Below, piece after piece: positions 28,063 to 48,212 of a DNA stretch of 64,000 bases. Source of the stretch: Patescibacteria group bacterium (GTDB lineage Bacteria > Patescibacteriota > Minisyncoccia > Minisyncoccales > UBA10102); assembly GCA_022563395.1 (NCBI GenBank), contig JADFNM010000001.1:270342-334341 (forward strand), in the 5' to 3' direction. Under the pieces are notes generated by a model. It ran no database searches. It had not been told where the DNA came from and worked only from the letters and a program-made list of their open reading frames with translations. Numbering within the stretch: position 1 is the stretch's first letter; each line of letters starts with the position of its first letter. The translations under genes and the position numbers were made by a program.

Positions 28063-28134
28063 TGCCCCCAGCAGGACTCGAACCTGCAACCAATGGCTTA
28101 AAAGGCCACTGCTCTTCCATTGAGCTATGGGGGC
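28063..28134 (-). tRNA. tRNA-Lys (anticodon UUU)
   Basis: Hand-folded cloverleaf: acceptor GCCCCCA/TGGGGGC, anticodon loop CTTTTAA, T-loop GGTTCGAGTCC. Confidence 0.9.
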
Positions 28135-28245
28135 AAAAGCAAACTGCTTTGCTTTTGCCGGGAAACCTACCTTGATTTGCCATGTCGCCGTTGAGGCGAC
28201 GGCATAACAAGGGTTTCCCCGGGTCCGCCGGAGGCGGATACATTA

Positions 28246-28300
28246 CTCAACTGCTTGAGTTTTTGCGGGGCCAGAGTCAACTGCTTGACTCTGGCGGGCG
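28246..28300. repeat. family-C GC-rich hairpin element (intergenic copy)
   Basis: CTCAACTGCTTGAG and CAGAGTCAACTGCTTGACTCTG hairpins. 28265-28300 is 35/36 identical to 48011-48046 inside rpoD. Confidence 0.85.
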
Positions 28301-28414
28301 TTCTAGCAATTTAGTCCTTAAATTGCGTTAAGGAATGCCCAGGGCCCTCAATTGAATTCGTCCTCAACTAAATCAAGGAATCCTTGGTTTCACCAAGGAC
28401 GTAATGAGTATACT

Positions 28415-29503
28415 CTAAAGTCCTTGATTTTTCAAGCGCTCCAAGAGCTCTTTTTGCTCTTTGGTGAGTTTCTTTGGGGTGACAACATCAATCTCAACTA
28501 GCATGTTGCCGCGGCCTAAACCAGAGAAATGAGGAATACCTTTGCCTAAAACTCGCAATGTCTTGCCAGATTCAATACCTTGGGGAATGGTTAAGAGAAT
28601 CTTGGTTCCCTCAATGGTTGGAACTTCAATCTCGTCTCCCAAGGCGGCTTGCGAAAACAAGATTGGCATTTTTACATACAGATCATCCCCTTTTCTTTTG
28701 AACACGCTATGGGGCTTTACAAACACTCGAATGTATAAATCCCCTACTTTCCCTTTTCTTCTTCCCACGTCTCCTTTTCCTGCAATCTTAAGAATCTGGC
28801 TGCTATCCACTCCCGGGGGAATCTGTACCTTAATGCTATCTTCTCCCTGAATCCTTCCTTCTCCCTTGCATACGTTGCAGGAATGTTCTGGGATTAACCC
28901 TTCTCCCTTACATTCAGGACACAAACCAACCCTAGTAAAAGAGCCGAACACGGTTCTTTTAATCTGCTGCACCTGTCCTTGTCCCCTACAAGAAAAGCAC
29001 TCTTTGACTTTGGTTGAGGGTTCGGCTCCTACTCCCTGGCACCTGATGCAGGTTACAAGCTTTGAAAGGTTAATAACCTCTTCTTTTCCTTTGACGGTTG
29101 CTTCCAAAGGTATTGTAAGCTCAACCTCAATGTCTCGCCCGCTTTTTATGTCTTTTGTGGTTTTTTGACCAAAGAAATCTTCAAAGATTTCTCCAATGTC
29201 AAAGTCAACACCAAAACCCTCCGAAAACTCGTCTGCGTCATGCTCATGAGGGGTTCCCCAACCCCACTGAAAACCTCCAAATCCCGCACCTGGAGCCCCT
29301 TCAAACACTCTGCCAAACTTGTCGTACTGGGCTTTCTTGTCCATATCTGAAAGCACCTGGTAGGCCTCAGCAACCTCTTTGAAACGTGCTGCGTCACCGC
29401 CTTTGTCTGGGTGATACTTGTGGGCCAACTTCCGGTAGGCCTTTTTAATGTCATCTTCTGTGGCGTTTTTTGTAACGCCAAGAATTTTATAGTAATCCTT
29501 CAT
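28415..29503 (-). CDS. dnaJ: chaperone DnaJ
   Basis: J domain (HPD), G/F region, four CxxCxGxG zinc motifs. Confidence 0.95.
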   Translation of the reverse strand: MKDYYKILGVTKNATEDDIKKAYRKLAHKYHPDKGGDAARFKEVAEAYQVLSDMDKKAQYDKFGRVFEGAPGAGFGGFQWGWGTPHEHDADEFSEGFGVDFDIGEIFEDFFGQKTTKDIKSGRDIEVELTIPLEATVKGKEEVINLSKLVTCIRCQGVGAEPSTKVKECFSCRGQGQVQQIKRTVFGSFTRVGLCPECKGEGLIPEHSCNVCKGEGRIQGEDSIKVQIPPGVDSSQILKIAGKGDVGRRKGKVGDLYIRVFVKPHSVFKRKGDDLYVKMPILFSQAALGDEIEVPTIEGTKILLTIPQGIESGKTLRVLGKGIPHFSGLGRGNMLVEIDVVTPKKLTKEQKELLERLKNQGL

Positions 29504-29514
29504 CCTCGTATTTA

Positions 29515-31380
29515 TTATTTCTCACGATACTTTCCTTCTTCCGGTTTTTCTTTGCCATTCTTTTTCTCCTCTGACTCCTGCTGTTGATACATGGAGGCCC
29601 CAATCTTTTGGATCGCCTGGGAAAGCTCCTCGGTGGCTTTTTGAATCTCCTCTATTGTTTCACCATCCTTCACTTTTTTGAGGGCGTCAAGCTTTTCTTC
29701 CACATCCTTCTTGTCTTGTGGTGCAATCTTGTCTCCAGCATCTTTTAGGGTCTTTCCCACGGTATAGATTAAAGAGTCTGCCATGTTCCGTGCTTCCACC
29801 AACTCCCTTCTTTTTTTGTCTTCTTCTTCATGTGCCTCAGCTTCCTTACGCATGCGCTCTGCCTCCTCTTTAGAAATGCCAGAAGACCCTTCAATGCGGA
29901 TGGTCTGGGTTTTACCAGACGCCTTGTCTTTGGCAGTAACATTTAAGATACCGTTGGCATCAATGTCAAATACCACCTCAACCTGGGGAACTCCTCTGGC
30001 AGCCGGAGGAATGCTGTCTAAAATGAACCTGCCCAGAGACTTGTTGTCTTTTGCCATTTGGCGCTCTCCCTGCACCACATGAACCTCAACTGAAGTCTGA
30101 TTGTCTGCCGCAGTAGAAAACACCTGCGACTTTGCTGTGGGAATGGTGGTATTTTTGGCAATCAAAATGGTGTTTACCCCGCCCAGGGTCTCAATACCCA
30201 AAGACAAGGGAGTCACGTCTAACAAGAGAACGTCTTTTACTTCTCCATGCAAGATTCCGCCTTGCACTGCAGCTCCCAAGGCAACCACCTCATCTGGGTT
30301 AATGGAGCGGTTGGGATCTTTGCCAAACAGCTTTTTTGCTGCTTCTTGGATGGCTGGCATGCGGGTCTGCCCCCCTACCAAGACAATTTCGTCAATCTCT
30401 TTTGCCACAACCTTAGCTTCTTTTAAGGTTTGCTCCACTAGGGTAATAGACTTGTCGATATACTCTTGCACCAAACTTTCCAGCTGGGCTCTCGTCATTT
30501 TAAAATACAGGTGCTTTGGACCAGAACTGTCAGAGGTGATAAAGGGAAGATTAACTTCGGTCTCCATGGACGAGGAAAGTTCAATCTTTGCTTTTTCTGC
30601 CGCCTCTTTCAAGCGCTGTAAAGCTAAAGGGTCTTTGGAAAGATCAATACCCTCTTCCTTGTGGTACTGCTCCACCAGCCAGTTCATAATCTTTTGGTCA
30701 AAGTCCTCTCCCCCAAGGTGGGTATCTCCTCCTGTGGCTTTCACCTCAATGGTGTCCTGGGAAACTTCTAAAATGGAGATGTCAAAGGTTCCGCCGCCAA
30801 AGTCATACACCACAATACGCTCATCCTTTTTCTTATTTAAACCATAGGCCAAGGCTGCCGCCGTGGGCTCGTTCAACACTCGCTTTACTTCCAGGCCTGC
30901 AATCTCTCCTGCCACCTTGGTTTCCTTTCTCTGGCTATCGTCAAAGTAGGCTGGTACGGTAATGATGGCTTCTGTAATCTTCTCTCCCAGCTTTTCTTCT
31001 GCATCAACTTTTAGTTTGCGCAGCACCATGGCAGAGATCTCAGCTGGCTTCAGCCATTTCTCCCCCAGCTTGATTTCTACTCCCCCATCCTGGCCTTCTC
31101 GTATATTGTAGGGCAGAAGCTTCTTATCTTTTTGTACGACAGCATCAGAAAACCTCCTTCCAATTAACCTCTTTACCTGAGAGATAGTGTTTTGAGGGTT
31201 GGTTATCTGCTGGCGTCTTGCCTGCACCCCAACCAAGATCTCCCCATTCTTAGCTTGTGCCACCACAGAAGGAGTGGTTCTTGCTCCTTCCCGGTTTTCA
31301 ATGATTTTTGGTTCTCCACCCTCAATTACTGCCATAGCAGAGAACGTTGTTCCAAGGTCAATGCCTAATACTTTTGCCAT
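29515..31380 (-). CDS. dnaK: chaperone DnaK (Hsp70)
   Basis: [25 protein letters not shown] signatures. Confidence 0.97.
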
Positions 31381-31526
31381 AATGTTTGAATGTTAAATTG
31401 TGAGATGATATATGTTCTGCAAGCTCTCGGAGGCAATTTGGCATGGTTGCGAAAGCACAAATTGCCGAGAGTGCAGTTCCCAAAATCCGGCTGGGGATTT
31501 TGAGGAACGGTTGCCAAGAACATGTA

Positions 31527-31997
31527 TCATCGAACAACCTTTACTTTAGCTGGTCTTAGTAATATGTCTTTTATGGTATATCCTTTTTCTACCACCTCTA
31601 CCACCTTGCCCGGTTTTTCTCCTTGAACCATGCCTACTGCTTCGTGCAGGGCAGGGTTAAAGTTCTTTCCCTCTGCTTCAATCTCTTTTACTCCCTGGCT
31701 GTAAAGAAAGTCTTTTAACTGCTTTGCTATCTGCAAAAACCCTTGAACAAGCTTGCTGTTTCTCTCTTCGTCCTTTAGTTCCTTTTCTGCCCGTTCTAAG
31801 TTGTCCACCGTGGGAAGAAGGGAGGCAAGGAATTCTCCTCTGACATATTCCATCAAACCCTGCAACCGCTGTCTCTCTTCTTTCTTGTAGTTTACAAGGT
31901 CCGCCTTAGCTCGCTGCCATCCTGCCAGAAACTCTTCTTTCTCTTTTTGAAGCTCTTTTATCTTCTTTTGTAGTTTTTCAATATCTTTTTGTTCCAT
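31527..31997 (-). CDS. grpE: nucleotide exchange factor GrpE
   Basis: Coiled-coil N-terminus and a GrpE C-terminal beta domain. Directly upstream of dnaK. Confidence 0.9.
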   Translation of the reverse strand: MEQKDIEKLQKKIKELQKEKEEFLAGWQRAKADLVNYKKEERQRLQGLMEYVRGEFLASLLPTVDNLERAEKELKDEERNSKLVQGFLQIAKQLKDFLYSQGVKEIEAEGKNFNPALHEAVGMVQGEKPGKVVEVVEKGYTIKDILLRPAKVKVVR

Positions 31998-32130
31998 GAA
32001 ATGTAGGTTTTGTTCACGTCCACCATTATACCCGATTTTTCTCTTTTTGAAAAGGGGTGATGCGCAAAAAGCAAAAATGAGTGTGGATAGTCTTCTACTC
32101 CAATACGCTTGAATCTGTTACAATAATGTA

Positions 32131-33048
32131 ATGCGGAATATCATTGAACACGGAGGAATCACCTGGGTGGATATCCAAGATCCCACCAAAGAGGATGTGG
32201 AGTATTTGAGAGAGAGCTTTCATCTCCACCCCGTAGTACTAGAACAAATCATTCCTCCCTCCTGGGGAACCAGAGTAGAGCAGTTTGCCTCCAATCTCTT
32301 TTTGGTGCTGTTCTTTCCCATATACAGCAAAGAGCGCAAAGAAACACGTCCCAGAGAACTTGACATTATTGTTACCAGCAACGCTCTTATCACAAACCAC
32401 TATAGCTCCATCTTGCCTTTAAAAGCCATGTTTGACGAGTGCAACCTGTATGAAGACTTAAAAGAACAGCACATGGGAAAGGGAGTGGGTCTTTTGCTTT
32501 ACCGCGTGCTCCACACAATCTTGGAGGACACGGGAAAAAAGACAGGCAAGGTTGACCGCAAACTCATCCTTATTGAAGAATCCATTTTTAAGGGCAAGGA
32601 ACGAGAAATGTTAACAGAAATCTCCCTTGCAAAAGCAGACATCATCAATCTCTGGCGCATCGTGCGCCCCCAAAAGGGAGTATTCACTTCACTTCGCGAC
32701 AATGCAGCTAGTTTCTTTGACGGAGAGCACTACACTCCGTACTTCTCGCACCTGCGCAACCATTGGGCCCGCATCATGAGCACCCTCATTATTGCAAAAG
32801 AAACTATCAATTCTCTTGAGCAGACCAACAACGCCCTTTTAACAGACAAGACCAATGAGATTGTAAAGCTGCTCACCATTTTCTCGGTCATTGTCTTTCC
32901 CTTATCCTTAATTGCTGCCATATTTGGAATGAACACCAAGGTTCTCCCCTTGGTGGGACTCCCCGGAGACTTTTGGATTATCACTGCCATCATGGGAGTT
33001 GGCATCCTCTTTATGATTGCCTTTTTCAAAAAGAAAAAGTGGATCTAG
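32131..33048 (+). CDS. corA: CorA family magnesium transporter
   Basis: GMN motif (FGMNTKV) between two C-terminal TM helices. Confidence 0.88.
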   Translation: MRNIIEHGGITWVDIQDPTKEDVEYLRESFHLHPVVLEQIIPPSWGTRVEQFASNLFLVLFFPIYSKERKETRPRELDIIVTSNALITNHYSSILPLKAMFDECNLYEDLKEQHMGKGVGLLLYRVLHTILEDTGKKTGKVDRKLILIEESIFKGKEREMLTEISLAKADIINLWRIVRPQKGVFTSLRDNAASFFDGEHYTPYFSHLRNHWARIMSTLIIAKETINSLEQTNNALLTDKTNEIVKLLTIFSVIVFPLSLIAAIFGMNTKVLPLVGLPGDFWIITAIMGVGILFMIAFFKKKKWI

Positions 33049-33866
33049 TCTTGGTACTTAATGTAGGCCTGGTCCCCAAAACGAAGATCAATGTATTTAA
33101 GCTCCCCTCTTTTCTCCGGGGGGATTTTTTGTTCCAACACAAGCTGCAGCTTTGTTTGCTGCCATTCCATGCTTTCCTCCGTATCCAAGCGTATCTTCCA
33201 TCCTTCCTGAGTCACACCCTCCACTTGTCCTGCGCGCCCAATCTCAAAGGCAGCAAGAATAACGTGCATGGGCTCGCCTGCTGAAAGGAAGGCCTCTCGA
33301 AAATCCAACAGAGTGGAAAGAAGCTGAAGGTTCAGGGATTCCTTGCCTAATGCAACCTGGGAAGCTTCCTTGGAACTAAACAAGGTATAACCTTCTCCAG
33401 CCTCCACCTCCTTGAAAGCAATGCCTTCTTTATCTAGTGCAAAACACAAGCTTTCCTCGCCTGCCTTAAGAGACACGCACCACGTCCCCACCTGCACCCG
33501 CTCTTCTACTGAAACGACAATGGTCTGCGGAAAGGAGCGCTTCACAAAAACCGCTCTGAGCAAAGGAAACTTATAAGATAGCAATTCTCCTGCTCCCGTG
33601 CCGTCAAAGAGCAGAATACTGTTTGTGGGAATGCCAAACCAGTTCCACCACAACTTCTCACCCAGAGCAGCAAGGATATGCTCTTTTTTGACTTCCTGTG
33701 CTCCCTCAACTTGAACCTCTTTGATTTCCAGCCAGGAAGAAAATACTACGGCGTAAAAAAGAAAGGTAAGAAAAAAAAGAACACCCGTCGCATACCAAAA
33801 GGACCGCAATTTCAAAAATGACACTCGCTTCTTTTTTCTTTTAAAACGCATGGGTTTTCTCATCAA
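33045..33866 (-). CDS. ftsQ: FtsQ/DivIB-like cell division protein (TM + POTRA)
   Basis: N-terminal TM and a POTRA-like segment (IKEVQVEGAQEVKKEHILAAL). Confidence 0.65.
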   Translation of the reverse strand: MMRKPMRFKRKKKRVSFLKLRSFWYATGVLFFLTFLFYAVVFSSWLEIKEVQVEGAQEVKKEHILAALGEKLWWNWFGIPTNSILLFDGTGAGELLSYKFPLLRAVFVKRSFPQTIVVSVEERVQVGTWCVSLKAGEESLCFALDKEGIAFKEVEAGEGYTLFSSKEASQVALGKESLNLQLLSTLLDFREAFLSAGEPMHVILAAFEIGRAGQVEGVTQEGWKIRLDTEESMEWQQTKLQLVLEQKIPPEKRGELKYIDLRFGDQAYIKYQD

Positions 33867-34891
33867 AGATGTCTTCTTATTCTTCTGACAGTTTCAAAAA
33901 ATGCGGTGAACCAATATTTTAAGCTCACTGGGTAATCCTGGGTCTTCACATAAAGCTTTGCCTCTCCTCCAAATCCCTGTTTGAAAAGCGTGGGTCCTGC
34001 CCAAGGATGCTTTGGCTGCGTCTTTGGGTCAACGTATCCCCAAAAATCATACAGCACACACCCTCTTCTCTTTGCCTCTTTTAAAGCTTCCCATAATAAC
34101 AGATAAGACAAAGAAAGCTTTGCAAATTCCGGCAGAGAGACTGCGTGATGATAGAATCCAATGCCAGACCAAAACACCACAAAGGAAGCAGCTGCCACAT
34201 TGCTTTTGTACTTTGCGAGAAACAAAAGAACCTGATTGTCTTTTGAAAATGCTTCAAACTCACCTTGTAAGTACTCCAAAGAAAAAGGGACAAAGGCCTG
34301 CCGCCTTGAAACTTTCTCATGCATGCGAGAAAAGAGTTCAACATCAACTCTGCTGCTGCTCCGTTCAATGGTAATGTCCTGGTTCTTTGCTGCCTGGCGA
34401 ATAAGATAGCGTGTGGTCTTTCGCATCTGAGACAGTAACTCCTCTAGGTCAAGAGTAATATCTAACTTCCAAGAAGCTTCAGGGTGCATTTGTGAAGGAG
34501 CATCTTTGAATCCAGCTTTCCTGAAAAGCTGCACGTTTTCCTCTACCCTCTCCCAAATGGGGTTAAAACGAATAAAGCTTGCCTTTTCTTTTAAGGCAAC
34601 GTCTTTCAAAAAAGGAAGCAGAGCAGAGAGTATTGCCTCCTTTCTCTGTTCCCCTGGTTTTGTCACCGGACCATGAGGCAAGAGCAAGAAAGTTCCCCGG
34701 CGGGCTACAACCTTCACCACAAGGGAAACTGCAACAAGGTTTTCCTCCTCATACACTCCCAAGCGCCATACACGCCCCCGTATGAGTTTCTGGAACTCGC
34801 CCCAGTTCCAAGACTGCAAAAAGGTCTTATCACGACATCCTTGCAAAAACCCTTCCCATTCTTCCTTGTTTGTAACCTTCTTAATCTCCAT
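33863..34891 (-). CDS. FemAB family peptidoglycan interpeptide-bridge aminoacyltransferase
   Basis: FLQSWNWGEFQK N-terminal signature and ~340 aa size typical of FemX-like enzymes. Confidence 0.75.
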   Translation of the reverse strand: MEIKKVTNKEEWEGFLQGCRDKTFLQSWNWGEFQKLIRGRVWRLGVYEEENLVAVSLVVKVVARRGTFLLLPHGPVTKPGEQRKEAILSALLPFLKDVALKEKASFIRFNPIWERVEENVQLFRKAGFKDAPSQMHPEASWKLDITLDLEELLSQMRKTTRYLIRQAAKNQDITIERSSSRVDVELFSRMHEKVSRRQAFVPFSLEYLQGEFEAFSKDNQVLLFLAKYKSNVAAASFVVFWSGIGFYHHAVSLPEFAKLSLSYLLLWEALKEAKRRGCVLYDFWGYVDPKTQPKHPWAGPTLFKQGFGGEAKLYVKTQDYPVSLKYWFTAFFETVRRIRRHL

Positions 34892-34893
34892 AG

Positions 34894-34932
34894 TGCTTAA
34901 ACGAGATTTAAGAACTCTTAAATCTCGTTTAG
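34894..34932. repeat. family-B nested palindrome (inverted pair, opposite order)
   Basis: GCTTAAACGAGATTTAAG-N4-CTTAAATCTCGTTTAGG, between DegT-like and FemAB-like genes. Confidence 0.9.
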
Positions 34933-36153
34933 GAGAAACTGGATAATAGTGTTTACTTCTTTTTCTGAAATGCGAATGTGCGTGGGGAGGTTAAGCGTAG
35001 TCTTGGCAAGTTCCTCTGCCTTAGGACAGCTCCCCCACTCGTATCCCATCTTCTCTATTTGAGTATCATAAGGAGCTATGGGAGTCGTGTACCAATCTCC
35101 CAAAAGCAGATTTTGCCGCCATGCCCTTTTGATGATCTCGTGGGCCTTTACATGCCGCAAGGGAAATCGAAGGTAAATATTTCCTTCCTGGTATTTCGTA
35201 TCTAGTATTTGGTATTGAGTATGAGATAGGGCTTGAACATATTTTTGAGCAATCTGTCTTCGGTGTTCATTGAAACGTTCCAGTTTTCTCAATTGTTTTC
35301 TTGCCAAAAGCGCCAGCGCATTGGGGAGTGCCTTGGGGAAATATCCTGGTTTCTCGCCCCTTTTCTCTTTTTTGTGGACTGCCTTAGAAAGAACATGGAG
35401 GTATTGGGCAATACGAAGCGTGTACTTGCCTCCAATTCCATACAGAGGCAGAATCCTCCAGTTCATGATAACTGGATGAAGCAACTGCTGAAAAATCCAA
35501 AGTAAAAAAGGATACCCAACTTTTTTCTGAAACTCCCTCATACTCTCTGCAAGCGGAGCATCGTTTGTGACAACCATTCCTCCATACACAGAAGAAATCA
35601 CCTTATCTCTTGAGAAACTGAAAAAAGAAGCTTTCCCAAACGTGCCAACTTTTCTACCTTTGTATTCTGCCCCCAGGGCATGGGCACAATCTTCCAGGAG
35701 AACAAGGTTGTGTTTGCTACAAATTTCTTGAATCTTGTCCATATCAGCTGGCGCGCCAAAGGTATGCTGCACCAACACTGCCTTTGTGTGTGGGGTAATC
35801 TTTTTTTTAAGATCCTCAGGAGACATGTTGTAGTCCTCTTTACAGTCAACGTACACGGGTTTCAAACCGGACCAAAGTATAGGATTGGGTACTGCATTGC
35901 AGGTGAAAGCTTGAATAAGAATTTCGTCTCCTTTTTTAAGCCCCAAAGATTCTAAGATAGCAAGAAAGGCAGACCTGCCACTGTTAAATGCAAACGCATA
36001 TTCCACCCCCAAATACTCCCGAAACTCCTCCTCCAAAAGGGGGGTCTGACCCCCCTTTTGCCATCTCCACGGCTGAAATAACAACGCGAAAGCAGCCAGA
36101 ATATCATCTGTCTCAGTATTGGGAGACAAGGAAATGGAAATGGGGCGAATCAT
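34918..36153 (-). CDS. DegT/DnrJ/EryC1/StrS family PLP aminotransferase
   Basis: FSFSRDKVIS PLP-lysine region. The C-terminal LNEI* is encoded by a family-B repeat arm. Confidence 0.8.
   Translation of the reverse strand: MIRPISISLSPNTETDDILAAFALLFQPWRWQKGGQTPLLEEEFREYLGVEYAFAFNSGRSAFLAILESLGLKKGDEILIQAFTCNAVPNPILWSGLKPVYVDCKEDYNMSPEDLKKKITPHTKAVLVQHTFGAPADMDKIQEICSKHNLVLLEDCAHALGAEYKGRKVGTFGKASFFSFSRDKVISSVYGGMVVTNDAPLAESMREFQKKVGYPFLLWIFQQLLHPVIMNWRILPLYGIGGKYTLRIAQYLHVLSKAVHKKEKRGEKPGYFPKALPNALALLARKQLRKLERFNEHRRQIAQKYVQALSHTQYQILDTKYQEGNIYLRFPLRHVKAHEIIKRAWRQNLLLGDWYTTPIAPYDTQIEKMGYEWGSCPKAEELAKTTLNLPTHIRISEKEVNTIIQFLLNEI
36035..36059. repeat. perfect 25-bp palindrome inside the DegT-like CDS
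   Basis: AAAAGGGGGGTC-T-GACCCCCCTTTT. Encodes ..QKGGQTPLL.. Confidence 0.9.
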
Positions 36154-37751: not shown

Positions 37752-37754
37752 ATT

Positions 37755-39752: not shown

Positions 39753-39794
39753 GCTTAAACGAGATTTAGTTTTTCAAAACTAAATCTCGTTTAG
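39753..39794. repeat. family-B nested palindrome (inverted pair)
   Basis: GCTTAAACGAGATTTAG-N10-CTAAATCTCGTTTAG, between lysS and serS. Confidence 0.9.
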
Positions 39795-39797
39795 TCA

Positions 39798-41270: not shown

Positions 41271-41287
41271 ACTCCCCTATTCTACGA

Positions 41288-41755
41288 CTATTTTAAGCCT
41301 TCTGCAATCTCCAGAATTTTGTAGGCAGTCTCTCCTTGAGGCGTTTGTACGACAACTTTCTCACCTTTCTTCTTCCCCAAAATAGCTTCACCCAGGGGCG
41401 AGGAAGCTGAGATCTTGTCTTTAAACGGGTCTGCTTCTTGCGACCCTGTAATGGTAATGGTCCACTTTTCTTTTTCGGTCTCCAGGGTTACCTTAGAACC
41501 TATTTCTACTGTTTCGTTTGTAGAAGAGCCTTCCACAATCTTAGCGTTGAAAAGGGTAGATTCAAGCTCTGCTATCCTGCGCTCCATGAAGCCCTGCTCT
41601 TCTTTGGCGTTCTGGTAGTCAAAGTTTTCAGACAGGTCTCCCATGGCAGCGGCCTGTCGAATGCGATTTGAAATCTCTTTTCGCTTGGTCTTTTTTAAGT
41701 ATTCCAGCTCCTTTTGGAGCTTTTCTTTTCCCTCTTTGGTAATATATTGTTCCAT
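41288..41755 (-). CDS. greA: transcription elongation factor GreA
   Basis: ITKEGKEKLQKELEYLK start and Gre C-terminal domain. ATG at 41755 chosen over the longer ORF-track start. Confidence 0.88.
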   Translation of the reverse strand: MEQYITKEGKEKLQKELEYLKKTKRKEISNRIRQAAAMGDLSENFDYQNAKEEQGFMERRIAELESTLFNAKIVEGSSTNETVEIGSKVTLETEKEKWTITITGSQEADPFKDKISASSPLGEAILGKKKGEKVVVQTPQGETAYKILEIAEGLK

Positions 41756-41847
41756 ATTATTAATATATGCCGGTGCGGTTTTATACGGCTCCGCAGGAGC
41801 TCCGCCTAAACCGCCCGTAAAAGTAAAGCAGTTTACTTTTACCCATA

Positions 41848-43761
41848 CTATTGATTGAAATACCACTGAAACGCGTCACGCACAACCGGAAGGGTTGCAA
41901 CCTGCCCCTCTATGACATCCTCCACAAGAACCACCAGAACAATCTCAGGGTTTACAAAAGGAGCAAAGGCCACGGTCCAGGAATAGAGATAATCTTTACC
42001 GTCAATAGTTTTTCTCCCGATTTGGGCCGTTCCGGTCTTTGCAGCGACAGCCACGGGCAATTCATTAAGAAATCCTGTGGCAGAACCTGAGGTCACGGCC
42101 TGTCGCATCCCTTGCCTGATAATCTCTATGCTCTGTCCGTCTACAAATCCTTGCCTCTTTACCTTGGGCTCTCGAATCTCCAAGGTGTTTCTCTCACCAT
42201 CAACAAGCAGCTTTATTGCCTGTGGCTCCAGTAAAGTTCCGCCATTTGCCAAAGCTGCAAAAGCCGATGCAACCTGAAGAGGAGTTATGGCAAAGGGGCC
42301 TTGCCCAATGGAAAGATGGTAGGTGTCTCCCAATCTCCAATTTTGATCAAACGTTGGCAAGATGCCGCTTCCTTCCCCGGACAAATCCACCCCGGTTGTT
42401 TCACCCCACCCAAACTTCTCAATGTACTCTTTAATCTTTCCCGGTCCCAAGCCAGCAAAACCCTCATATCCTCCGCCAATGATGTAAAAAAAGGTGTTCA
42501 CCGATTCTGCAATGCCCCGTGCAATGTCGGTCGTGCCATGAAACATCCAATCCCGGAAACATTCATCTTCTTTGGTGTAAATATTCTCAACACAGATTTC
42601 CAGAGGGGCAAAGATCTTGGTATCTTCTTGAATAATGCCCTCTTCTAAAGCTGCAATCCCGACTAAGGGCTTAATGACAGAACCGGTAGGATAGCCAATA
42701 CCGGATATGGCGCGGTTAAACAGCGGCTTTGAGGGGTTTTGTATTAAATTATTCCATTGTTCTAAGGAAATACCCTGTCCAAAAAGATTTGCGTCAAAGG
42801 AGGGTAAGCTCACTAAAGCAAGAATGCCCCCAGTGGAGGGGTCAAGAGCTACTGCAGCTCCCTTCTTGGTTGTAGTCTGCTTAAACACCGCCTCAAGAGA
42901 TTCTGCAATGCGCTCTTGCAATCCTGCGTTAAGCCACAAAACAAGGCTGGTACCCTGCTGTGAGGGGATTGTTTCTTTTTGCCCCACGATCTTTCCTGCA
43001 GCATCCCGCGAAAGCACTATTCTCCCGGGATTCCCCCGAAGAAACTCCTCGTATGTTTTTTCTACCCCAACCTTGCCAATCTGGTCGGTCACCGAGTATC
43101 CCTGAAGCCCTAAAAACTCCTGAGCTGAAATCTTTGCGGTATATCCCAAGAGATGGGAAAACAGCTCTCCTTCAACATACTCTCGCCTCACGTTTTCTAC
43201 AACGTGGCATCCTGGAAATTCTTGAAGTCGCGCCTCCAGCAGCACAAGTTCTTCGTGGGAAAGATTTTCTTTCACCAAAATGCGGGGTGCAAGATTCTTT
43301 TGAATCTCGTCTTTCAACTCCCCAAAGGAAATGCCTAACAAAGCAGAGGCTTTTTTAAAAATGGCTTCGTTTTCTTTTGGGATAGTAGGCATGTTAAACT
43401 TGTCGCATACAAAGTCAAAACTGGGCCTGTTGAATGCAAGCTGCACAAAGGAATTATCGTACAACACCCCGCGGTCTGGGGCCAAAGGAATGTTGCGAAC
43501 TGCGTTTTGTTCTGCTGATTTTCGCATCTCTTCCCCTAAAAATACCTGAAGGTCAAAGGTTTTTACCAGAACAAGAGCCGCAACCAAAAGAAAGGTACCA
43601 TAGAGAACACGCATAATTGTTTCAGACAGAGGGAGTTCAATCCTTTGCTCGGCAAACTCATCTCCTGCCTTTTTTTGAGCAAGCTTGTCGAGCAATACCT
43701 CCTGAATCTCAATCTCCTTCCCTGCCGCCTTCTTTTTATATATATTGCGGGAGGCGAACAT
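41848..43761 (-). CDS. mrdA: penicillin-binding protein 2 (elongation transpeptidase)
   Basis: TM anchor, dimerisation domain, SVIK (SxxK) and KTGTA motifs. ATG at 43761 preferred over the TTG at 43788. Confidence 0.88.
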   Translation of the reverse strand: MFASRNIYKKKAAGKEIEIQEVLLDKLAQKKAGDEFAEQRIELPLSETIMRVLYGTFLLVAALVLVKTFDLQVFLGEEMRKSAEQNAVRNIPLAPDRGVLYDNSFVQLAFNRPSFDFVCDKFNMPTIPKENEAIFKKASALLGISFGELKDEIQKNLAPRILVKENLSHEELVLLEARLQEFPGCHVVENVRREYVEGELFSHLLGYTAKISAQEFLGLQGYSVTDQIGKVGVEKTYEEFLRGNPGRIVLSRDAAGKIVGQKETIPSQQGTSLVLWLNAGLQERIAESLEAVFKQTTTKKGAAVALDPSTGGILALVSLPSFDANLFGQGISLEQWNNLIQNPSKPLFNRAISGIGYPTGSVIKPLVGIAALEEGIIQEDTKIFAPLEICVENIYTKEDECFRDWMFHGTTDIARGIAESVNTFFYIIGGGYEGFAGLGPGKIKEYIEKFGWGETTGVDLSGEGSGILPTFDQNWRLGDTYHLSIGQGPFAITPLQVASAFAALANGGTLLEPQAIKLLVDGERNTLEIREPKVKRQGFVDGQSIEIIRQGMRQAVTSGSATGFLNELPVAVAAKTGTAQIGRKTIDGKDYLYSWTVAFAPFVNPEIVLVVLVEDVIEGQVATLPVVRDAFQWYFNQ

Positions 43762-44032
43762 AGTTTCTGAGAATATGCCGTGCTGCAAAGAACAGCATCA
43801 AAGAAAGGATTATCCAGAATCCAAAAGGGAGCGAAGAGTATAGGTCTAAAACAAAACCCCCAGCCAATGCTGCGACAATCCCTGTTTCAGTAGAGGCAAA
43901 AGAGGCCAAGATCACCAGAGAAATTAACACAAGGTTTGGTACCCATCCCCACAAAGGAAAGTGGGGCAAGAAACTCACTTGGAGCAAGGCAAGAATGAAA
44001 AAGCTGAGTATGACAAGGAATCCTTTCTTCAT
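43736..44032 (-). CDS. mreD: rod shape-determining protein MreD
   Basis: Small polytopic membrane protein between mreC and PBP2. Confidence 0.7.
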   Translation of the reverse strand: MKKGFLVILSFFILALLQVSFLPHFPLWGWVPNLVLISLVILASFASTETGIVAALAGGFVLDLYSSLPFGFWIILSLMLFFAARHILRNYVRLPQYI

Positions 44033-44805
44033 TGGTAGTTTGTGAGGATAAACAAGGAGTTCTCCTTTCTCAATTGAAAGAACAGCTCAACCTTTCCTCC
44101 TTGAAAAGCGGTAAGGTCGCTCTTTTCAATGCTTTTCACATCTCCAATCAAGAGATTGTCTGGAAACACACCTCCTAAAGCTGAAGTCACCACAGCGTCT
44201 CCTTCCAGTAGTTCTTCTTCTTGAGGAATAAGATCTAAAAGAACACGATATCTTCCCTGCCCTTTCAACACTCCTATCACCTCTTTTCCCTGGATCTTCA
44301 CGTCAGAAGAACGGCCACTCAGCGAAAGAAGAAGAACCTTTGAGGTGTGTTCAAATACTTCACCGATGCTTCCCACGGCAACCTTGCTTTGCGTAATGAC
44401 AGGCATTCCTTGTTTTACGCCATCTTGAGCCCCTTTGTTTAAGAGCAACACGTCCCGTTCAACTTCCTTTCCAATAATCTCAGTAAAAAGCAGATTAAAC
44501 TCCTCCCTTGAGGCAATATCAAGCGCTTCCCTCAGACGTTCGTTCTCCTTTGCCACTTCCTGGACCAAAAGGAGCTTCTGGCGAAGGAGAAGATTCTCTG
44601 TTTCTAGTTCCCAGGCACGCTCTTGTGAAACCTTAGAAAAAATCTCTACAGTAGACGTACCCGCTTTCCAAAGCAAAGACTGCACGGGAGAAAGGAGTGA
44701 GGAAAACGTTCCCCGTACGCTTTGCGAACTAAGGTTTAAAATCAAAAGAACACCCGCGAGAAAGAGCAGTGTTAAAAGCTTGTGTTTTTTGAGAAGAGAT
44801 TGCAT
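44029..44805 (-). CDS. mreC: rod shape-determining protein MreC
   Basis: TM, coiled coil and beta domains. Position upstream of mreD and mrdA. Confidence 0.8.
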   Translation of the reverse strand: MQSLLKKHKLLTLLFLAGVLLILNLSSQSVRGTFSSLLSPVQSLLWKAGTSTVEIFSKVSQERAWELETENLLLRQKLLLVQEVAKENERLREALDIASREEFNLLFTEIIGKEVERDVLLLNKGAQDGVKQGMPVITQSKVAVGSIGEVFEHTSKVLLLSLSGRSSDVKIQGKEVIGVLKGQGRYRVLLDLIPQEEELLEGDAVVTSALGGVFPDNLLIGDVKSIEKSDLTAFQGGKVELFFQLRKENSLFILTNYQ

Positions 44806-44836
44806 GCGTTCCCCTAGTATATCAGGAAATGAGGAA

Positions 44837-44864
44837 CAAAAAAAACCGCCTAATTGACAATTCT
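44837..44864 (-). repeat. family-A module, copy 15 (degenerate)
   Basis: ACAAAAAAAACCGCCTAATTGACAATTC, upstream of mreC. Confidence 0.5.
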
Positions 44865-44925
44865 TTGTTTTGAGATAAACGGATATCTCCTAAATGAAAT
44901 TTAGGAACCATTGGCTTCAATGAAT

Positions 44926-44950
44926 ATTGCTTAAATCTCGTTTAAGCAAT
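44926..44950. repeat. family-B single unit (self-hairpin)
   Basis: ATTGCTTAAA-TCTCG-TTTAAGCAAT, 10-bp stem. Confidence 0.9.
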
Positions 44951-44954
44951 AACG

Positions 44955-44987
44955 GCTCCCCCTGCTGGACGAAGTTAGAACCTGTTT
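44955..44987. repeat. 33-bp direct repeat, left copy (identical at 45516-45548)
   Basis: GCTCCCCCTGCTGGACGAAGTTAGAACCTGTTT is identical at both positions. The two copies bracket the GC-rich orphan gene. Confidence 0.9.
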
Positions 44988-45063
44988 GGTGTAAAGATAA
45001 AGGCCGCTGGGCGAACCATGCGGCCTTGCAATCGGGCAGATTAACACTTCTTCATACTGTGAA

Positions 45064-45456
45064 TCAACCGAGCGCTGGACTGAAGCGTTCGAGTGCTTCT
45101 TGGTCGGCTGGATGCATGTTGTCCGGGCGTGGTTGATCAACCCGGTCATCCATCCCCCAATCTTCCAGTATCTGCGGCTCCCCAATCTTTGGAAGGATGA
45201 GCCGCTCCAGATGTCCTTCTGGAGCAATCACGATCCATCTTGATTGAGAAGCGTCTCGACGGCTGGAGAAGATGACGACCTTGGTCTCACCAGTTACTCC
45301 CTCAAGGAGAGTAACGTGGGGTCTTCGTCGCAACAGCCTCTCTCCGAGAGAGCGTTCCACAGCACCGAGCTTGATCGCAAGATCCGGAGCGAGCTGGACA
45401 TGCCCTTTCTCTTGAAGGAAACGCTCAGCCCTGGAACGTAACACAGAAGTGTTCAT
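45064..45456 (-). CDS. orphan GC-rich hypothetical protein (130 aa)
   Basis: Own promoter and AAGGAAGG SD upstream of the ATG at 45456. Hairpin AAGGCCGC-N12-GCGGCCTT downstream. No family recognised. Confidence 0.55.
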   Translation of the reverse strand: MNTSVLRSRAERFLQEKGHVQLAPDLAIKLGAVERSLGERLLRRRPHVTLLEGVTGETKVVIFSSRRDASQSRWIVIAPEGHLERLILPKIGEPQILEDWGMDDRVDQPRPDNMHPADQEALERFSPALG

Positions 45457-45481
45457 TCTTCTACCTTCCTTTCTAAATGCA

Positions 45482-45510
45482 ACCATACCACATCTCTATG
45501 GTATTGTCAA
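45482..45510 (-). promoter_or_regulatory. sigma70-type promoter of the orphan gene
   Basis: Minus strand TTGACA (45505-45510), 17-nt spacer, TATGGT (45482-45487). Confidence 0.55.
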
Positions 45511-45515
45511 TATTA

Positions 45516-45548
45516 GCTCCCCCTGCTGGACGAAGTTAGAACCTGTTT
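45516..45548. repeat. 33-bp direct repeat, right copy
   Basis: Identical to 44955-44987. Its last bases supply the stop codon of the HIT gene. Confidence 0.9.
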
Positions 45549-45975
45549 AGTTGCTCAATAATTGGAAAAGTCGTTCTTTTTCTTCCCCTGGTAAATCCTT
45601 GTAGAGGGGTTTGCGGTGAATGTCTGCCTTCTCGTGAAGCTCGTCTTGATACTCTCTTGGATAAAGGTGGAAGTGCATATGATTTACGTGGGTTTCACTG
45701 TTTTCAATATAGGGCTTGTAGTTCTGGCGGATATCACACCCAGAGGCGAGTTTATCAAGAATCTTTGCCTGAAACTCAGCAACAAAGTCTATAGTCTCGT
45801 CTCGCTCTTCCTTGGAAAGCTCCTGAAGTTTTCCCTCAATGTGCCTCTTGGGAATGACCAGAAGATGCCCTGGCATGAGCCGTGGATTGCTAAAAATCAC
45901 ATAGGCATACTGCCCGTCTTTGAGTATCCTTCCCTCTTCTTTTGCGGTTGTACAGAATGGACAAGTGTTAATCAT
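45547..45975 (-). CDS. HIT family hydrolase
   Basis: Histidine triad HVNHMHFHL and N-terminal CPFC. Confidence 0.85.
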   Translation of the reverse strand: MINTCPFCTTAKEEGRILKDGQYAYVIFSNPRLMPGHLLVIPKRHIEGKLQELSKEERDETIDFVAEFQAKILDKLASGCDIRQNYKPYIENSETHVNHMHFHLYPREYQDELHEKADIHRKPLYKDLPGEEKERLFQLLSN

Positions 45976-45981
45976 ACCACC

Positions 45982-46380
45982 CTAATCTCTTCTCAAAATC
46001 TTGAACTCCTTGAATCCAGTGTTCTCATCGAGCTCTCGAGAAAACTTATGCTTTTCTGACTCCCCAATAACTACCTCTGCTGTAGTATGCAAAACACATC
46101 CTTCTTTAAGGTGTCCTCCTATCGTGTTCCCTTTCTTATCTCCCAAACCAATATGTAGGTGCATCCCATCCTGCGAAAGGGTGCCTACTAAAGAGATGAT
46201 TTCAAACTTCTCATCCCATGTTCTAATCTCATTCTCATCTGCAAGCCTAAGCGTTGCCTTCTTCAAGCTTCCAACGCACGTTAGAATGAAACCTGCCTGA
46301 ATGTTGTTTTCCGCAACAAACTTCTTGAGCTCTTCTCTAAGATCCTGGCCTGGTTGAAGTCGAAAGATATGAGTTTTCAT
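45982..46380 (-). CDS. PPC domain (DUF296) protein
   Basis: FRLQPGQDLREEL...FILTCVGSLKKATLR is typical of PPC/DUF296. Confidence 0.7.
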   Translation of the reverse strand: MKTHIFRLQPGQDLREELKKFVAENNIQAGFILTCVGSLKKATLRLADENEIRTWDEKFEIISLVGTLSQDGMHLHIGLGDKKGNTIGGHLKEGCVLHTTAEVVIGESEKHKFSRELDENTGFKEFKILRRD

Positions 46381-46389
46381 ATGCTCACT

Positions 46390-46418
46390 CTACCAAAGAA
46401 CCGCCAGATTGGCGATTC
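46390..46418 (-). repeat. family-A module, copy 16 (hairpin part only)
   Basis: CTACCAAAGAACCGCCAGATTGGCGATTC, 10 nt upstream of the PPC-domain ATG. Confidence 0.75.
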
Positions 46419-46430
46419 TTTTTCTCCATA

Positions 46431-46469
46431 CTGCTTAAATCCATGCTGCTTAAATCTCGTTTAAGCATG
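46431..46469. repeat. family-B units (partial plus full)
   Basis: CTGCTTAAATCCATGCTGCTTAAATCTCGTTTAAGCATG. Confidence 0.85.
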
Positions 46470-46526
46470 ATTGACTCTATTGATTATCTCCTAAATGAAA
46501 TTTAGGAATCACTGGCTTCAATGAAT

Positions 46527-46551
46527 ATTGCTTAAATTTCGTTTAAGCAAT
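46527..46551. repeat. family-B single unit
   Basis: ATTGCTTAAATTTCGTTTAAGCAAT. Part of the ~80-bp direct repeat shared with 44882-44962. Confidence 0.9.
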
Positions 46552-46625
46552 AAGAGCTCCCCCCCAATCGGGCACAGTCAAAACTGCAATCCTTATGTAA
46601 GTCCGAATTGCACAGGGGTTTACAG

Positions 46626-46653
46626 TTGTAATCAATAGCAAAACCTGTATAAT
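46626..46653 (+). promoter_or_regulatory. promoter candidate for tRNA-Asn (extended -10)
   Basis: TTGTAA, 16-nt spacer, TGTATAAT. About 45 nt upstream of the tRNA. Confidence 0.5.
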
Positions 46654-46699
46654 GACAAAGTAGAAGAATGCAACAGTGGAGATTTGAAGACGCGCGGGC

Positions 46700-46771
46700 T
46701 CCGCGGTAGCTCAACGGTAGAGCCATTCGCTGTTAACGAAGGGGTTGTAGGTTCGAATCCTACCCGCGGAG
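46700..46771 (+). tRNA. tRNA-Asn (anticodon GUU)
   Basis: Acceptor TCCGCGG/CCGCGGA, anticodon loop CTGTTAA, T-loop GGTTCGAATCC. Confidence 0.9.
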
Positions 46772-46792
46772 CTCGCGTGTTTTCTTTACAAC

Positions 46793-46820
46793 AAAAACAG
46801 GGTGCTTATGCCCTGTTTTT
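46793..46820. terminator. bidirectional terminator between tRNA-Asn and rpoD
   Basis: AAAAACAGGG-N8-CCCTGTTTTT. Confidence 0.75.
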
Positions 46821-46847
46821 GTGTAGATAACTTAGCCGGGATAAATT

Positions 46848-48212
46848 TTAATAACCGCGGAGTTTTTTTAAAGACCGGTGGTCCCGGATTTTCTCTAGAG
46901 ATTTAGCCTCAATCTGGCGGATGCGCTCTCTTGTAACGCCAAATTCACTTCCCACTTCTTCTAGGGTGTGGGTAATTCCATCATCCAGGCCAAAGCGCAT
47001 AGCAAGAATCTTTTGTTCTCGTGGGGTAAGATCAATTAAGATTTCTTTTAAGCGCTCTTTTAAAAGATTTCTTGATGCTTCCACAGAAGGAGGTGGAACC
47101 TTTTCGTCTTCCACAAACTCAGCCAGCACGCTGTCTTCATCATCCTTTCCTACGGGAGTTTCCAAAGACACGGTTTCCTGAGAAATCCTTTGAATCTGGT
47201 GAATCTTCTCTATCTGAAGCCCCATCTCGGCTGCAACCTCCTCTGCTAAAGGCTCCCTTCCCAAATCCTGCAGCAAGCGCCTTCTTACCTGGGTGTACTT
47301 TGAGATGGTTTCAATCATGTGCACGGGAATACGAATGGTCCGCGCCTGGTCAGCTAGAGCTCTGGTAATGGCTTGCCTAATCCACCAGGTAGCGTATGTT
47401 GAAAACTTGTATCCCCGCCTCCAGTCAAACTTCTCTACCGCACGAAACAACCCGAGATTTCCCTCTTGGATCAAGTCCAGCAGGGTAAGGTTTGGGGAGC
47501 GACCTACATATCTCTTTGCAATAGAAACCACGAGGCGGAGATTTGCCCGTGCCAACTGCTTTTTTGCCTCAATGTCTCCTTTTTCAATGCGCTTTGCAAG
47601 CTCTTTTTCTTGCTCTGCTGTTACAAAAGGAATTTTGCCGATTTCTTTTAAGTACATCTGCACCGAGTCTAAAGGAGCTTCTGCTTCCACCCTTTTCTTT
47701 TCTACCTCTTCTTTTTGAGGCACACTCAGGTATTCTCTTACCTCTTCCACCCGAATACCAGACTCCTCTAACCTTTCGTACAAGGCCTCCAGAGCAGGAA
47801 CCTTCTTTTCAATGCCGGGGAAAGCGTACAAGATTTCAGAATACGTTACAAACCCCCGGGGCTGTCCTCTTTCAAAAAGTTCCTGGAGGAGATCCTCTGA
47901 AAACAAGGCTCTTTCCCCCTTCCTTCCTCTGCCCTGCTTTTTCGTTTGCCTGAAGTGTGGGCGGATAAACGTTCGCTTTGTGGGGCGAGGAACCAACTGC
48001 TTGGTTCCTCGCGGGGTCAGAGTCAACTGCTTGACTCTGGCGGGCGATTTAGCGAGGCGTCTCTGCCAAGCGTTAGAAATCGCCCTGGGCTTGCGGCGAG
48101 AGGTCATAGAGCGCCCCGGGTCTAATTTTTTCTTCTTCTTTCTTGTCGGCTTACGCCTCTTTTGCGTACCCGCCGGCGTAACGGGCCTTTTTGCTTTCTG
48201 TTTTCTTGCCAT
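46848..48212 (-). CDS. rpoD: RNA polymerase sigma factor RpoD with ~110 aa basic N-terminal extension
   Basis: Regions 1.2-4.2 ([44 protein letters not shown]). 3 nt downstream of dnaG. Confidence 0.95.
47986..48046. repeat. family-C GC-rich hairpin element inside the rpoD coding sequence
   Basis: CGAGGAACCAACTGCTTGGTTCCTCG and CAGAGTCAACTGCTTGACTCTG hairpins. Near-identical to 28265-28300. Confidence 0.85.

Follow-up and report, generated by a model that had tools for sequence, protein, structure and literature searches.

A family of hairpins with the loop CTGC recurs along 64,000 nucleotides of a Patescibacteria group bacterium (assembly GCA_022563395.1, contig JADFNM010000001.1, positions 270,342 to 334,341 of the forward strand; this whole stretch is termed the window, and all coordinates of sites in it are given relative to its first letter). 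These hairpins probably constitute helix P1 of a non-coding, non-autonomous and dispersed mobile repeat of about 75-80 nt, here termed element E, which is found in genomes of the candidate phyla radiation (CPR) or Patescibacteria that are of the Paceibacteria type, the genome behind the window being Wildermuthbacteria-like. To our knowledge, both the non-coding repertoire and the mobile DNA of these bacteria with their tiny, streamlined genomes are almost undescribed, and full-text literature searches yielded no description of E.

Chance is excluded as the origin of the hairpin family in the window. The sequence CAACTGCTTG occurs five times where 0.29 occurrences are expected, a number reached in none of 100 shuffles, and the loop CTGC is found in five of the 36 perfect hairpins that have four loop nucleotides and stems of 6 bp or more. 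A sixth hairpin, with GCAG on the plus strand, is located at 41817-41842. On the CTGC strand the members share the flanks (T/G)GGG-(8 nt)-AACTGCTT-(8 nt)-CGGGCG-nTnTAG, and the extended 39-nt pattern GGG-N8-AACTGCTT-N8-CGGGC-NNTNTAG is present four times in the window compared with 0.00 expected. A covariance model built from 52 copies and run on the window with filters off gave a total of five full copies of E, each with an E-value <= 7e-8, and two lone P1 hairpins, equivalent to a density of about one E per 10-15 kb.

An earlier reading of the window from its letters alone (the sequence-only reading) had pointed out two 36-nt stretches at 28265-28300 and 48011-48046 that are identical in 35 of 36 positions, a hairpin in front of each of them (CTCAACTGCTTGAG at 28246 and CGAGGAACCAACTGCTTGGTTCCTCG at 47986), a further member abutting tRNA-Lys (GGCAAAAGCAAACTGCTTTGCTTTTGCC at 28132-28159, next to the minus-strand tRNA gene at 28062-28134) and a reverse copy within uvrC (CGGAACCAAGCAGTTGGCTCCG at 60830-60851). 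Direct look-up recovered all of these sequences at the positions given for them. The conserved centre it described is real as well, the true loop being CTGC with A-T pairs closing it. The hairpin, however, proved to be only one helix of a three-helix element of about 75 nt, and the supposed second hairpins at 28245-28260 and 47985-48012 exist as lone P1 hairpins directly 5' of a full element. One member, the copy at 41770-41844 on the minus strand, in the spacer between a penicillin-binding protein (PBP) gene and greA, had been overlooked.

Alignment among loci extends approximately 40 nt past the P1 hairpin and delimits the element, which has no coding capacity. On the CTGC strand E starts with (T/G)GGG, followed by P1 with 11 bp (a G-C and two A-U closing pairs among them) and the loop CUGC. 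The 5' arm of helix P2, GGGCGAUUU, is followed by AG, and its partner 3' arm is AAUCGCCC (also given as AAAUCGCCC); in the short consensus the two arms read GGGCGATTT/AAATCGCCC. They enclose P3, a helix of 6-7 bp with the loop (C/G)UCCNN and, in most copies, tandem G·A/A·G pairs. CGUUAAA lies between P3 and the 3' arm of P2, after which E ends with N-GG(G) (3' end CCNGG). The junctions AG and CGUUAAA are nearly invariant, and altogether about 35 of 75 positions are near-invariant across metagenome-assembled genomes (MAGs) whose titles name several CPR groups. On the 3' side there often is another GC hairpin, P4, itself succeeded by a TAnnnT motif. In many copies the P4 loops are GAGG, GGAG or GAAG and the hexamers TACAAT, TATAAT, TACATT, TACCTT and the like; in the window, P4 TCCGCCGGAGGCGGA at 28224-28238 is followed by TACATT at 28239-28244. 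A -10-like box that points outward and a recognition motif at the terminus are possible roles of the hexamer. An outward promoter in the TAnnnT tail was rejected because its spacing to a -35-like sequence and to the tRNA +1 position is inconsistent.

Pair statistics were derived from the 52 copies, which were gathered with a pattern that leaves 16 stem positions free and fixes the conserved positions, so that the diversity of E is under-sampled. Among these copies P1 is paired in 99.3% of cases, and eight of its 11 pairs exhibit double (compensatory) changes. For the complete 27-pair structure 90.1% of the cells are paired, as compared with 70.1% in shuffles and 33-41% for slid partners. RNAalifold predicted 22 pairs for aligned copies of E, 14 of them compensatory. 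A test for covariation had been proposed in the sequence-only reading, which had argued that selection acts on a folded single strand (RNA or single-stranded DNA, ssDNA) rather than on coding sequence; with 282 double-change cells in the 27-pair structure vs. 88 in shuffles, the pair counts and compensatory changes bear this out. One specific strand of E must fold: the cells deviating from Watson-Crick pairing comprise 126 purine-purine and 31 G·U combinations vs. eight A·C and five pyrimidine-pyrimidine combinations, and among the matches listed the CTGC strand is more stable than its complement in 99 copies, the opposite being true for 38 (p = 7e-8). Mismatch types and folding energy therefore identify the CTGC strand as the one under structural selection. 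An HDV-like double pseudoknot was rejected, since the topology supported by covariation is nested and incompatible with it. Pairing of the UCC loop with the terminal G-runs to form a pseudoknot was also considered; the positions concerned do not vary among copies.

E is gained, lost and eroded between close relatives. The uvrC gene (59774-61261, plus strand) contains a canonical full copy in frame and in antisense orientation at 60781-60855 on the minus strand (84.3 bits). Together with three flanking nucleotides it accounts for 26 additional amino acids (HNKSRGIAKRSTGTPRYNARRNQAVG), which, upon comparison with the solved Bacillus UvrC fragment (PDB 3c65), appear as unmatched query residues 333-358 between chain residues 55 and 56. 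The empty site, KYKIHITGKxNDFAMM, is present in nine of 12 orthologues. The same insert occurs in orthologue P0123, where it is recognized by the covariance model with 81.5 bits, and P0121 features only a 33-nt in-frame remnant that stems from internal deletion of an E copy. In the uvrC gene of P0128 (contig L173), an independent copy of the variant type resides at the same codon in another frame and a second E elsewhere in the gene, such that a single uvrC site has been struck twice independently.

In rpoD (open reading frame, ORF, 46848-48212, minus strand) a canonical full copy is situated at 48014-48088 on the plus strand, antisense and in frame in the basic N-terminal extension (85.9 bits). 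When the relatives of rpoD were searched for absence of the segment, as had been suggested in the sequence-only reading, the nearest orthologous locus, L049, was found to lack exactly 75 nt while exhibiting the same dnaG-stop/ATG arrangement as the window. At locus L047 the conserved ATG is preceded by a diverged copy, which lies in the spacer between dnaG and rpoD. The basic extension is variable among orthologues. The window copy probably is coding, as the earlier reading had it, because the orthologues share the start MA(K/R)KQKxKK (MAKKQKxKK) and a basic extension. The alternative that the rpoD copies lie in untranslated DNA between dnaG and rpoD, with translation starting farther downstream at a TTG behind the Shine-Dalgarno-like GGAAGGAAGGGGG, was rejected on the grounds that the MAKKQK start and the basic extension are conserved in orthologues.

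The remaining canonical copy of the window, at 41770-41844 on the minus strand (82.6 bits), fills the spacer between the stop codon of the PBP2-like gene (41848-41850) and the greA ATG (41755-41753) in operon-sense orientation; within the extended ORF, residue 41 is the first of the GreA Pfam domain. Copies in the middle of genes, in frame and in sense orientation, were encountered on metagenome contigs L104 and L150, one in a protein with an HRLDR motif, which from its sequence appears to be of the RluA type and pseudouridine-synthase-like, and the other in a large membrane protein. With 41 of 60 copies being intergenic and in-frame copies occurring in both orientations, E lands in intergenic spacers as well as in frame in tolerant parts of proteins, in either orientation.

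Several side observations concern the excision repair proteins. At amino acids ~118-152 of the window's UvrC (60121-60245), the low-complexity stretch TGSATGASTVASRAIPTAPPELRSVGRSLRQG takes the place of a shorter segment of other orthologues. It matches only the orthologues in L170 and L171 and contains no recognizable repeat; the corresponding region in P0128/L173 holds a variant-type E (L173 703-788). TGSATGASTVASRAIPTAPPELRSVGRSLRQG may be a decayed older insertion. UvrC lengths in CPR relatives range from 397 to 569 amino acids, and at least five separate lineage-specific in-frame inserts, e.g., PSLRPVLRSTATEGDQGYGG, YTQPHGAGAG and RPEGADEAHSQSEQNSF, imply that short insertions into core proteins are seemingly common in the group. 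Within the minus-strand gene for UvrA, the E model yields a weak plus-strand match at 58169-58248 (9.9 bits, E-value 2.6), at which point the window's UvrA is presumably about 15 residues longer than that of E. coli. The additional segment could be a decayed insertion or due to chance.

Beyond the window, where the sequence-only reading had called for a search for further copies, a scan of one genome per species with the 39-nt pattern retrieved 46 loci of E from 27 MAGs, and at least 120 metagenome contigs contain the pattern. Taxon names were taken from the record titles, which read Wildermuthbacteria, Terrybacteria, Sungiibacteriota, Paceibacterota, Parcubacteria group, "uncultured Candidatus Saccharibacteria" or simply "bacterium". 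In the collections scanned E is confined to CPR-type genomes. The pattern scan of viral contigs produced 0 matches, and an origin from phages or plasmids was rejected on this basis. In the whole window Rfam reported only three tRNAs at gathering score, and an Rfam 15 E-value search of 28100-28420 and of locus L005 detected nothing on E at an E-value <= 10 with all ribozyme families included. Known Rfam families considered as candidates, i.e., tRNA-like RNAs, HEARO/omega RNAs, twister, pistol, hatchet, hammerhead and HDV, were thus rejected as unmatched.

The strongest association of E is that with tRNA genes; the sequence-only reading had noted the adjacency to tRNA-Lys and missed this general relationship. 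Context statistics cover the matches listed for genomes and metagenomes, namely 143 unique contexts, 135 of which entered the test for flank duplications. A same-strand tRNA gene is present within 200 nt downstream of E in 42 of the 143 contexts, mostly at a distance of 6-84 nt. Opposite-strand tRNA genes follow in 10 and divergent tRNA genes precede in 11 cases. The 5' flank of E often is a partial tRNA copy that comprises the promoter -10 region and the nucleotides from 1 to the GG of the D-loop; some tRNA-Pro flank copies extend to the anticodon GGG, the intact gene then being located 3' of E. In 31 of the 135 contexts the upstream flank recurs downstream, its score exceeding the 99th percentile of mismatched controls, and 18 of these 31 duplications end exactly on the first two G of E. 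The repeats are 13-65 nt long, and no duplication is detectable in the other 104 contexts. At the window's tRNA-Lys and at loci L030 and L034, the complement of E's GGG(G)C forms the 5' end of the divergent tRNA. The preferred targets of E are G-runs that lie within tRNA genes or next to them (GG of the D-loop, tRNA-Pro anticodon GGG, acceptor CCC) and its own P1/P2 junction. An intron in the tRNA D-loop, of group I or of bulge-helix-bulge type, was rejected because an intact copy of the same tRNA always follows downstream (6-84 nt) and the 5' tRNA piece is a partial duplicate. In locus L041 (3293-3438), the whole 39-nt spacer of minus-strand tRNA genes for Thr/Gly is duplicated on the two sides of E, so that each tRNA keeps its native flank, and in locus L139 a 35-nt 3' part of tRNA-Thr is repeated with 100% identity just downstream of E.

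Five of the six lone P1 hairpins at the loci examined directly precede a full E, an arrangement that points to nesting at its internal GGG. It appears that the P1/P2 junction of older copies, with its GGG, served as the insertion point of new ones, and at both nested sites in the window the sequence 3' of the inner element resembles the P3/P2' remainder of an older copy. The first of these sites adjoins tRNA-Lys(UUU) (28062-28134, minus strand; identified by ARAGORN and Rfam). It begins with a variant-type full E at 28131-28222 on the plus strand (42.7 bits, E-value 7e-8), which exhibits a 12-bp P1, GGCAAAAGCAAA-CTGC-TTTGCTTTTGCC, a P2 formed by GGGAAACC/GGTTTCCC and a P3 that is enlarged; the first bases of tRNA-Lys are the complement of GGGGGC at the 5' end of this E. 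All further components of the site are on the plus strand: the P4 hairpin TCCGCC-GGA-GGCGGA at 28224-28238 with its TACATT, which was read from the sequence and has similar GC hairpins elsewhere; a lone short P1, ACTCAA-CTGC-TTGAGT, at 28245-28260 (partial match to model positions 8-23), probably the 5' portion of an older copy that the next element has split; the canonical full E at 28268-28343 in the spacer between dnaJ and tRNA-Lys, antisense to both (85.6 bits, E-value 1e-17), with a predicted fold of -39.2 kcal/mol that agrees with the consensus; and, at 28344-28383, the probable P3/P2' remainder (..CAATTGAATTCGTCCTCAACTAAATCAAGGAATCC) of the split older copy, resembling the CAATTC-GTCCTC-GAATTG...AAGGAAT type. 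At the rpoD site, a lone 12-bp P1, GCGAGGAACCAA-CTGC-TTGGTTCCTCGC, at 47985-48012 on the plus strand (partial model match, 18.7 bits) stands before the full copy, and 48089-48120 on the same strand (GCTTGCGGCGAGAGGTCATAGAGCGCCCCGGG) is the probable, decayed 3' remainder of an older copy, as alignment with L049, to which the diverged form is common, suggests. An explanation of 5'-only fragments as dispersed products of abortive copying was rejected, given that a lone P1 almost always occurs right before a full copy.

The composite of tRNA-Lys, variant E, P4, lone P1 and E is common to the window and L034, a locus of another Wildermuthbacteria MAG. In the variant E, compensatory changes distinguish the two loci at three P1 pairs in succession, with the CTGC loop being kept; two P3 pairs of the second element have likewise changed compensatorily, and the lone P1 has decayed. 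Long-resident orthologous copies of E thus keep their helices by compensatory substitution. As a separate observation, loci L006 (1948-2133) and L008 (2448-2632) each contain two full copies tail-to-tail, about 36 nt apart and with a shared central GC hairpin; the pair in L008 adjoins uvrC (2645-3964) and resembles a REPIN doublet.

No partner enzyme emerged from the surroundings of E. All-against-all clustering of ORFs at 46 and then about 165 loci revealed no transposase, reverse transcriptase or nuclease linked to the element, the neighbours being housekeeping genes only, without cassette arrays. Small GIY-YIG proteins occur near E at roughly background rate. A Pfam scan of 40 window ORFs detected no mobile-element or transposase domain, and an HUH (Y1) gene, a partner to be looked for according to the sequence-only reading, was neither linked to any copy nor present among the window ORFs scanned, the material covered being the 64 kb of the window and pieces of about 8 kb from other genomes. 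There is no replication-strand bias (20 vs. 21 for orientation relative to GC skew), no fixed short target duplication in the 135 listed contexts and no T/U run after P1 or P2. Terminal inverted repeats are likewise absent, the 5' GGGYCNNAG... not being the reverse complement of the 3' ...ATCGCCCNGG; pairing in E is internal (P1, P2/P3) and does not occur between its termini. The Pfam scan also assigned 50835-51353 to the 2'-5' RNA ligase/cyclic phosphodiesterase family (LigT/ThpR-like), with no link to E shown. LigT/ThpR-like enzymes act on RNA ends with 2',3'-cyclic phosphate, such as are produced by self-cleaving RNAs.

As a mobile repeat, E would be copied through a single-stranded intermediate of the CTGC strand, either ssDNA or RNA, and the folded intermediate would be recognized in trans by an unlinked enzyme. 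Joining to targets would proceed through GG/CCGG microhomology. Insertions into essential tRNA genes would survive only if the duplicated promoter and 5' flank keep an intact tRNA, and resident copies may then serve, or be tolerated, as stable hairpin modules in transcripts, with co-option as a possible outcome. Several points weigh against this proposal. No transposase, reverse transcriptase or recombinase is connected to E, so that the case for mobility is built from comparative patterns. [quoted passage not shown] The long and variable duplications of tRNA flanks fit no mechanism tested. The folded strand often is antisense to every neighbouring gene, as at window sites 1 and 2, and its orientation is independent of GC skew, so that neither a transcript-borne nor a lagging-strand intermediate is directly supported. 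Finally, the uvrC target offers no GG at the 5' junction, has CCGG where E ends and features a duplication of at most 1 nt; the target rule is loose, and GG microhomology is therefore a preference and not a rule.

One competing explanation holds that E is primarily a structured RNA with a function for the host, be it a cis module of tRNA precursors (leader, processing or stability), a small RNA or a small self-cleaving ribozyme, that spread by duplication and whose coding and antisense copies are accidental. We regard this as rather unlikely, even though near-invariance of about 35 of 75 positions across several CPR groups, tandem sheared G·A pairs and strand-specific wobbles typical of functional RNAs, the excess of same-strand over opposite-strand tRNA genes within 200 nt downstream (42 vs. 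10 among the matches listed) and the compensatory maintenance of orthologous copies all agree with it, and copies behind a duplicated tRNA promoter and 5' fragment would be highly transcribed. A host RNA is difficult to reconcile with heterogeneous 5' flanks lacking a conserved upstream promoter, with random orientation relative to protein genes and the coding strand, with distances of 6-84 nt to the tRNA, at which E cannot define a processing site, and with copies that are absent from close relatives without replacement or, in one case, decay through internal deletion; furthermore, E has no Rfam match at an E-value <= 10, ribozyme families included, and its nested three-helix topology is unlike the HDV-like fold. 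We consider highly improbable both a site in double-stranded DNA, i.e., a protein-binding site or cruciform for a nucleoid protein, gyrase or recombinase, and a family of intrinsic terminators. While mostly intergenic copies in both orientations and a stable hairpin that would form on either transcript would suit them, the strongly strand-asymmetric mismatch types are unlike a duplex site, and a terminator is at odds with the missing T/U run after P1 or P2, with copies upstream of start codons in operons (greA), upstream of tRNA genes and inside coding sequence, and with an asymmetric three-helix architecture that exceeds what a terminator needs.

Two further proposals retain mobility and specify its machinery. 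E might be REP/REPIN-like (REP, repetitive extragenic palindromic) or derived from IS200/IS605 elements (PATE-like), with an HUH (Y1) transposase of the RAYT (REP-associated tyrosine transposase) or TnpA type, encoded by a single-copy gene elsewhere in the genome, that mobilizes it in the form of folded ssDNA. Structural constraint on only one strand, hairpins with conserved flanking nucleotides, the tail-to-tail pairs in L006 and L008, the extragenic position of 41 out of 60 copies and the clustering and nesting of copies would be accounted for in this way; we nonetheless hold it to be unlikely, given that E has no 5' tetranucleotide of the GTAG/GTGG type, is a 75-nt three-helix unit and not a palindrome of 20-40 nt, occurs mostly as singletons, is found inside genes and lacks an orientation bias with GC skew, whereas IS608-type insertion is specific for the lagging-strand template. 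Peel-and-paste transposition, moreover, does not give long flank duplications, and neither the window ORFs scanned nor the neighbourhood of any copy contain a Y1 gene. Alternatively, a SINE-like retroelement could be at work, its transcript being reverse-transcribed from a target 3'-OH ending in GG that is paired with CCC-3' of the antisense transcript, with the other end joined by microhomology. One precise and one ragged end as well as variable target duplications would result, and E indeed exhibits a precise 5' junction, with 18 listed duplications ending exactly at X-GG|G, a variable 3' tail (with or without P4, different tails) and duplication lengths of 13-65 nt; a conserved structure is expected for recognition by reverse transcriptase, and eukaryotic retroelements are known to target tRNA genes as safe havens. 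We assign this possibility a slim chance only: E has no linked reverse transcriptase, lone P1 fragments, instead of being dispersed, are found almost only directly before a full copy, stems are highly diverged within a genome without young subfamilies, and 104 of the 135 listed contexts are devoid of a detectable duplication. A bolder version would make E a new bacterial mobile RNA of retro- or ribozyme type, in which an unlinked enzyme of the CPR recognizes the 75-nt three-helix RNA or its ssDNA copy, the targets being GG loops exposed in tRNA genes. The resulting promoter-plus-5'-tRNA duplications would keep the tRNA intact and at the same time bring E under a strong tRNA promoter. E would then be the prokaryotic equivalent of SINEs targeted to tRNA genes, and its invariant junction nucleotides might form a catalytic core; this has a small chance of being correct.

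Rickettsia palindromic elements (RPE) are short, non-coding palindromic repeats without a transposase of their own that are dispersed in a reduced genome, where they reside in intergenic DNA, in RNA genes and in frame in protein genes, thereby adding a peptide, and are present or absent between relatives. The behaviour of the probable mobile repeat E is closest to that of RPE and next closest to that of REP elements. Like RPE, it is short, non-coding and transposase-less, occurs in a reduced genome and is polymorphic for presence or absence, and the same repeat is found both in intergenic DNA and in frame in conserved genes while being absent from orthologues, the functional hallmark of RPE-like elements. 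A review of RPE is available (PMC2229807). No sequence similarity to RPE was noted, E being set apart by its CPR lineage and by its length of 75-80 nt vs. roughly 100-150 bp, with no RPE sequences aligned. Its three-helix fold with invariant loops and junctions, its preference for tRNA genes with flank duplication and its self-nesting also are unlike RPE. With REP/REPIN elements it has in common that abundant, small and mostly extragenic hairpin repeats vary in their stems while keeping the fold, form occasional inverted doublets and possibly play a secondary role as transcript hairpins. It differs from them in having a 5' end (G/T)GGG and no GT(A/G)G tetranucleotide, in its three helices and length of 75 nt, in not being strictly extragenic (uvrC, rpoD, L104, L150), in forming doublets seen only in L006 and L008, and in its conservation far beyond the genus level with no RAYT identified.

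Bacterial MITEs such as Correia/NEMIS and ERIC resemble E insofar as they are non-autonomous, on a scale of about 100 bp and able to sit in transcribed spacers and alter the expression of neighbours, yet E is without terminal inverted repeats and without a fixed short target duplication. Integron attC sites and the ends of IS200/IS605 elements likewise require one strand to fold and keep structure while sequence varies, and a trans-acting enzyme is plausible for E as well. In contrast to them, E has no cassette or integrase context, no R''/L''-L'/R' organisation as judged by eye, no replication-strand bias and many invariant nucleotides. Clustering of insertions right upstream of tRNA genes in a compact genome is reminiscent of Ty3, TRE and tRNA-derived SINEs, and E shares with the eukaryotic tRNA-targeting retroelements target duplications of variable length, a non-coding nature and the need for machinery in trans; unlike these, it is bacterial and has no linked reverse transcriptase, no poly-A or A-rich tail and no internal promoter, and its mechanism is inferred. 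E fails the defining tests for MITEs, REP/RAYT systems, terminators, tRNA introns, attC sites and every Rfam family, and it is set apart by its three-helix fold, its conservation over multiple CPR groups, the targeting of tRNA genes with long duplications and its self-nesting.

The window contains a second, unrelated repeat family based on the 13-mer TAAACGAGATTTA, which occurs 15 times at no more than one mismatch vs. 0.06 expected. Its sites are 10330-10374, 11441-11485, 34898-34931, 39756-39793, 44932-44944, 46451-46463, 46533-46545, 53916-53949 and 61274-61311, mostly inverted pairs in head-to-head and tail-to-tail arrangement, among them several perfect palindromes of 13-20 bp in intergenic spacers. 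This family could be a terminator, operator or uptake-type signal.

For the biology of the CPR, E means that even streamlined genomes carry an active, structured element that is selfish or semi-domesticated. It remodels tRNA loci and adds peptide segments to UvrC, to the N-terminus of sigma-70 and to a pseudouridine-synthase-like protein, and it explains some of the length variation and of the "low-complexity inserts" in CPR proteins. As a strongly covarying motif E is suited for structural and biochemical work, it is usable as a marker for CPR contigs in metagenomes, and it offers a tractable route to the enzyme that recognizes it. Should the intermediate prove to be RNA or the core catalytic, E would represent a new class of mobile RNA in bacteria.

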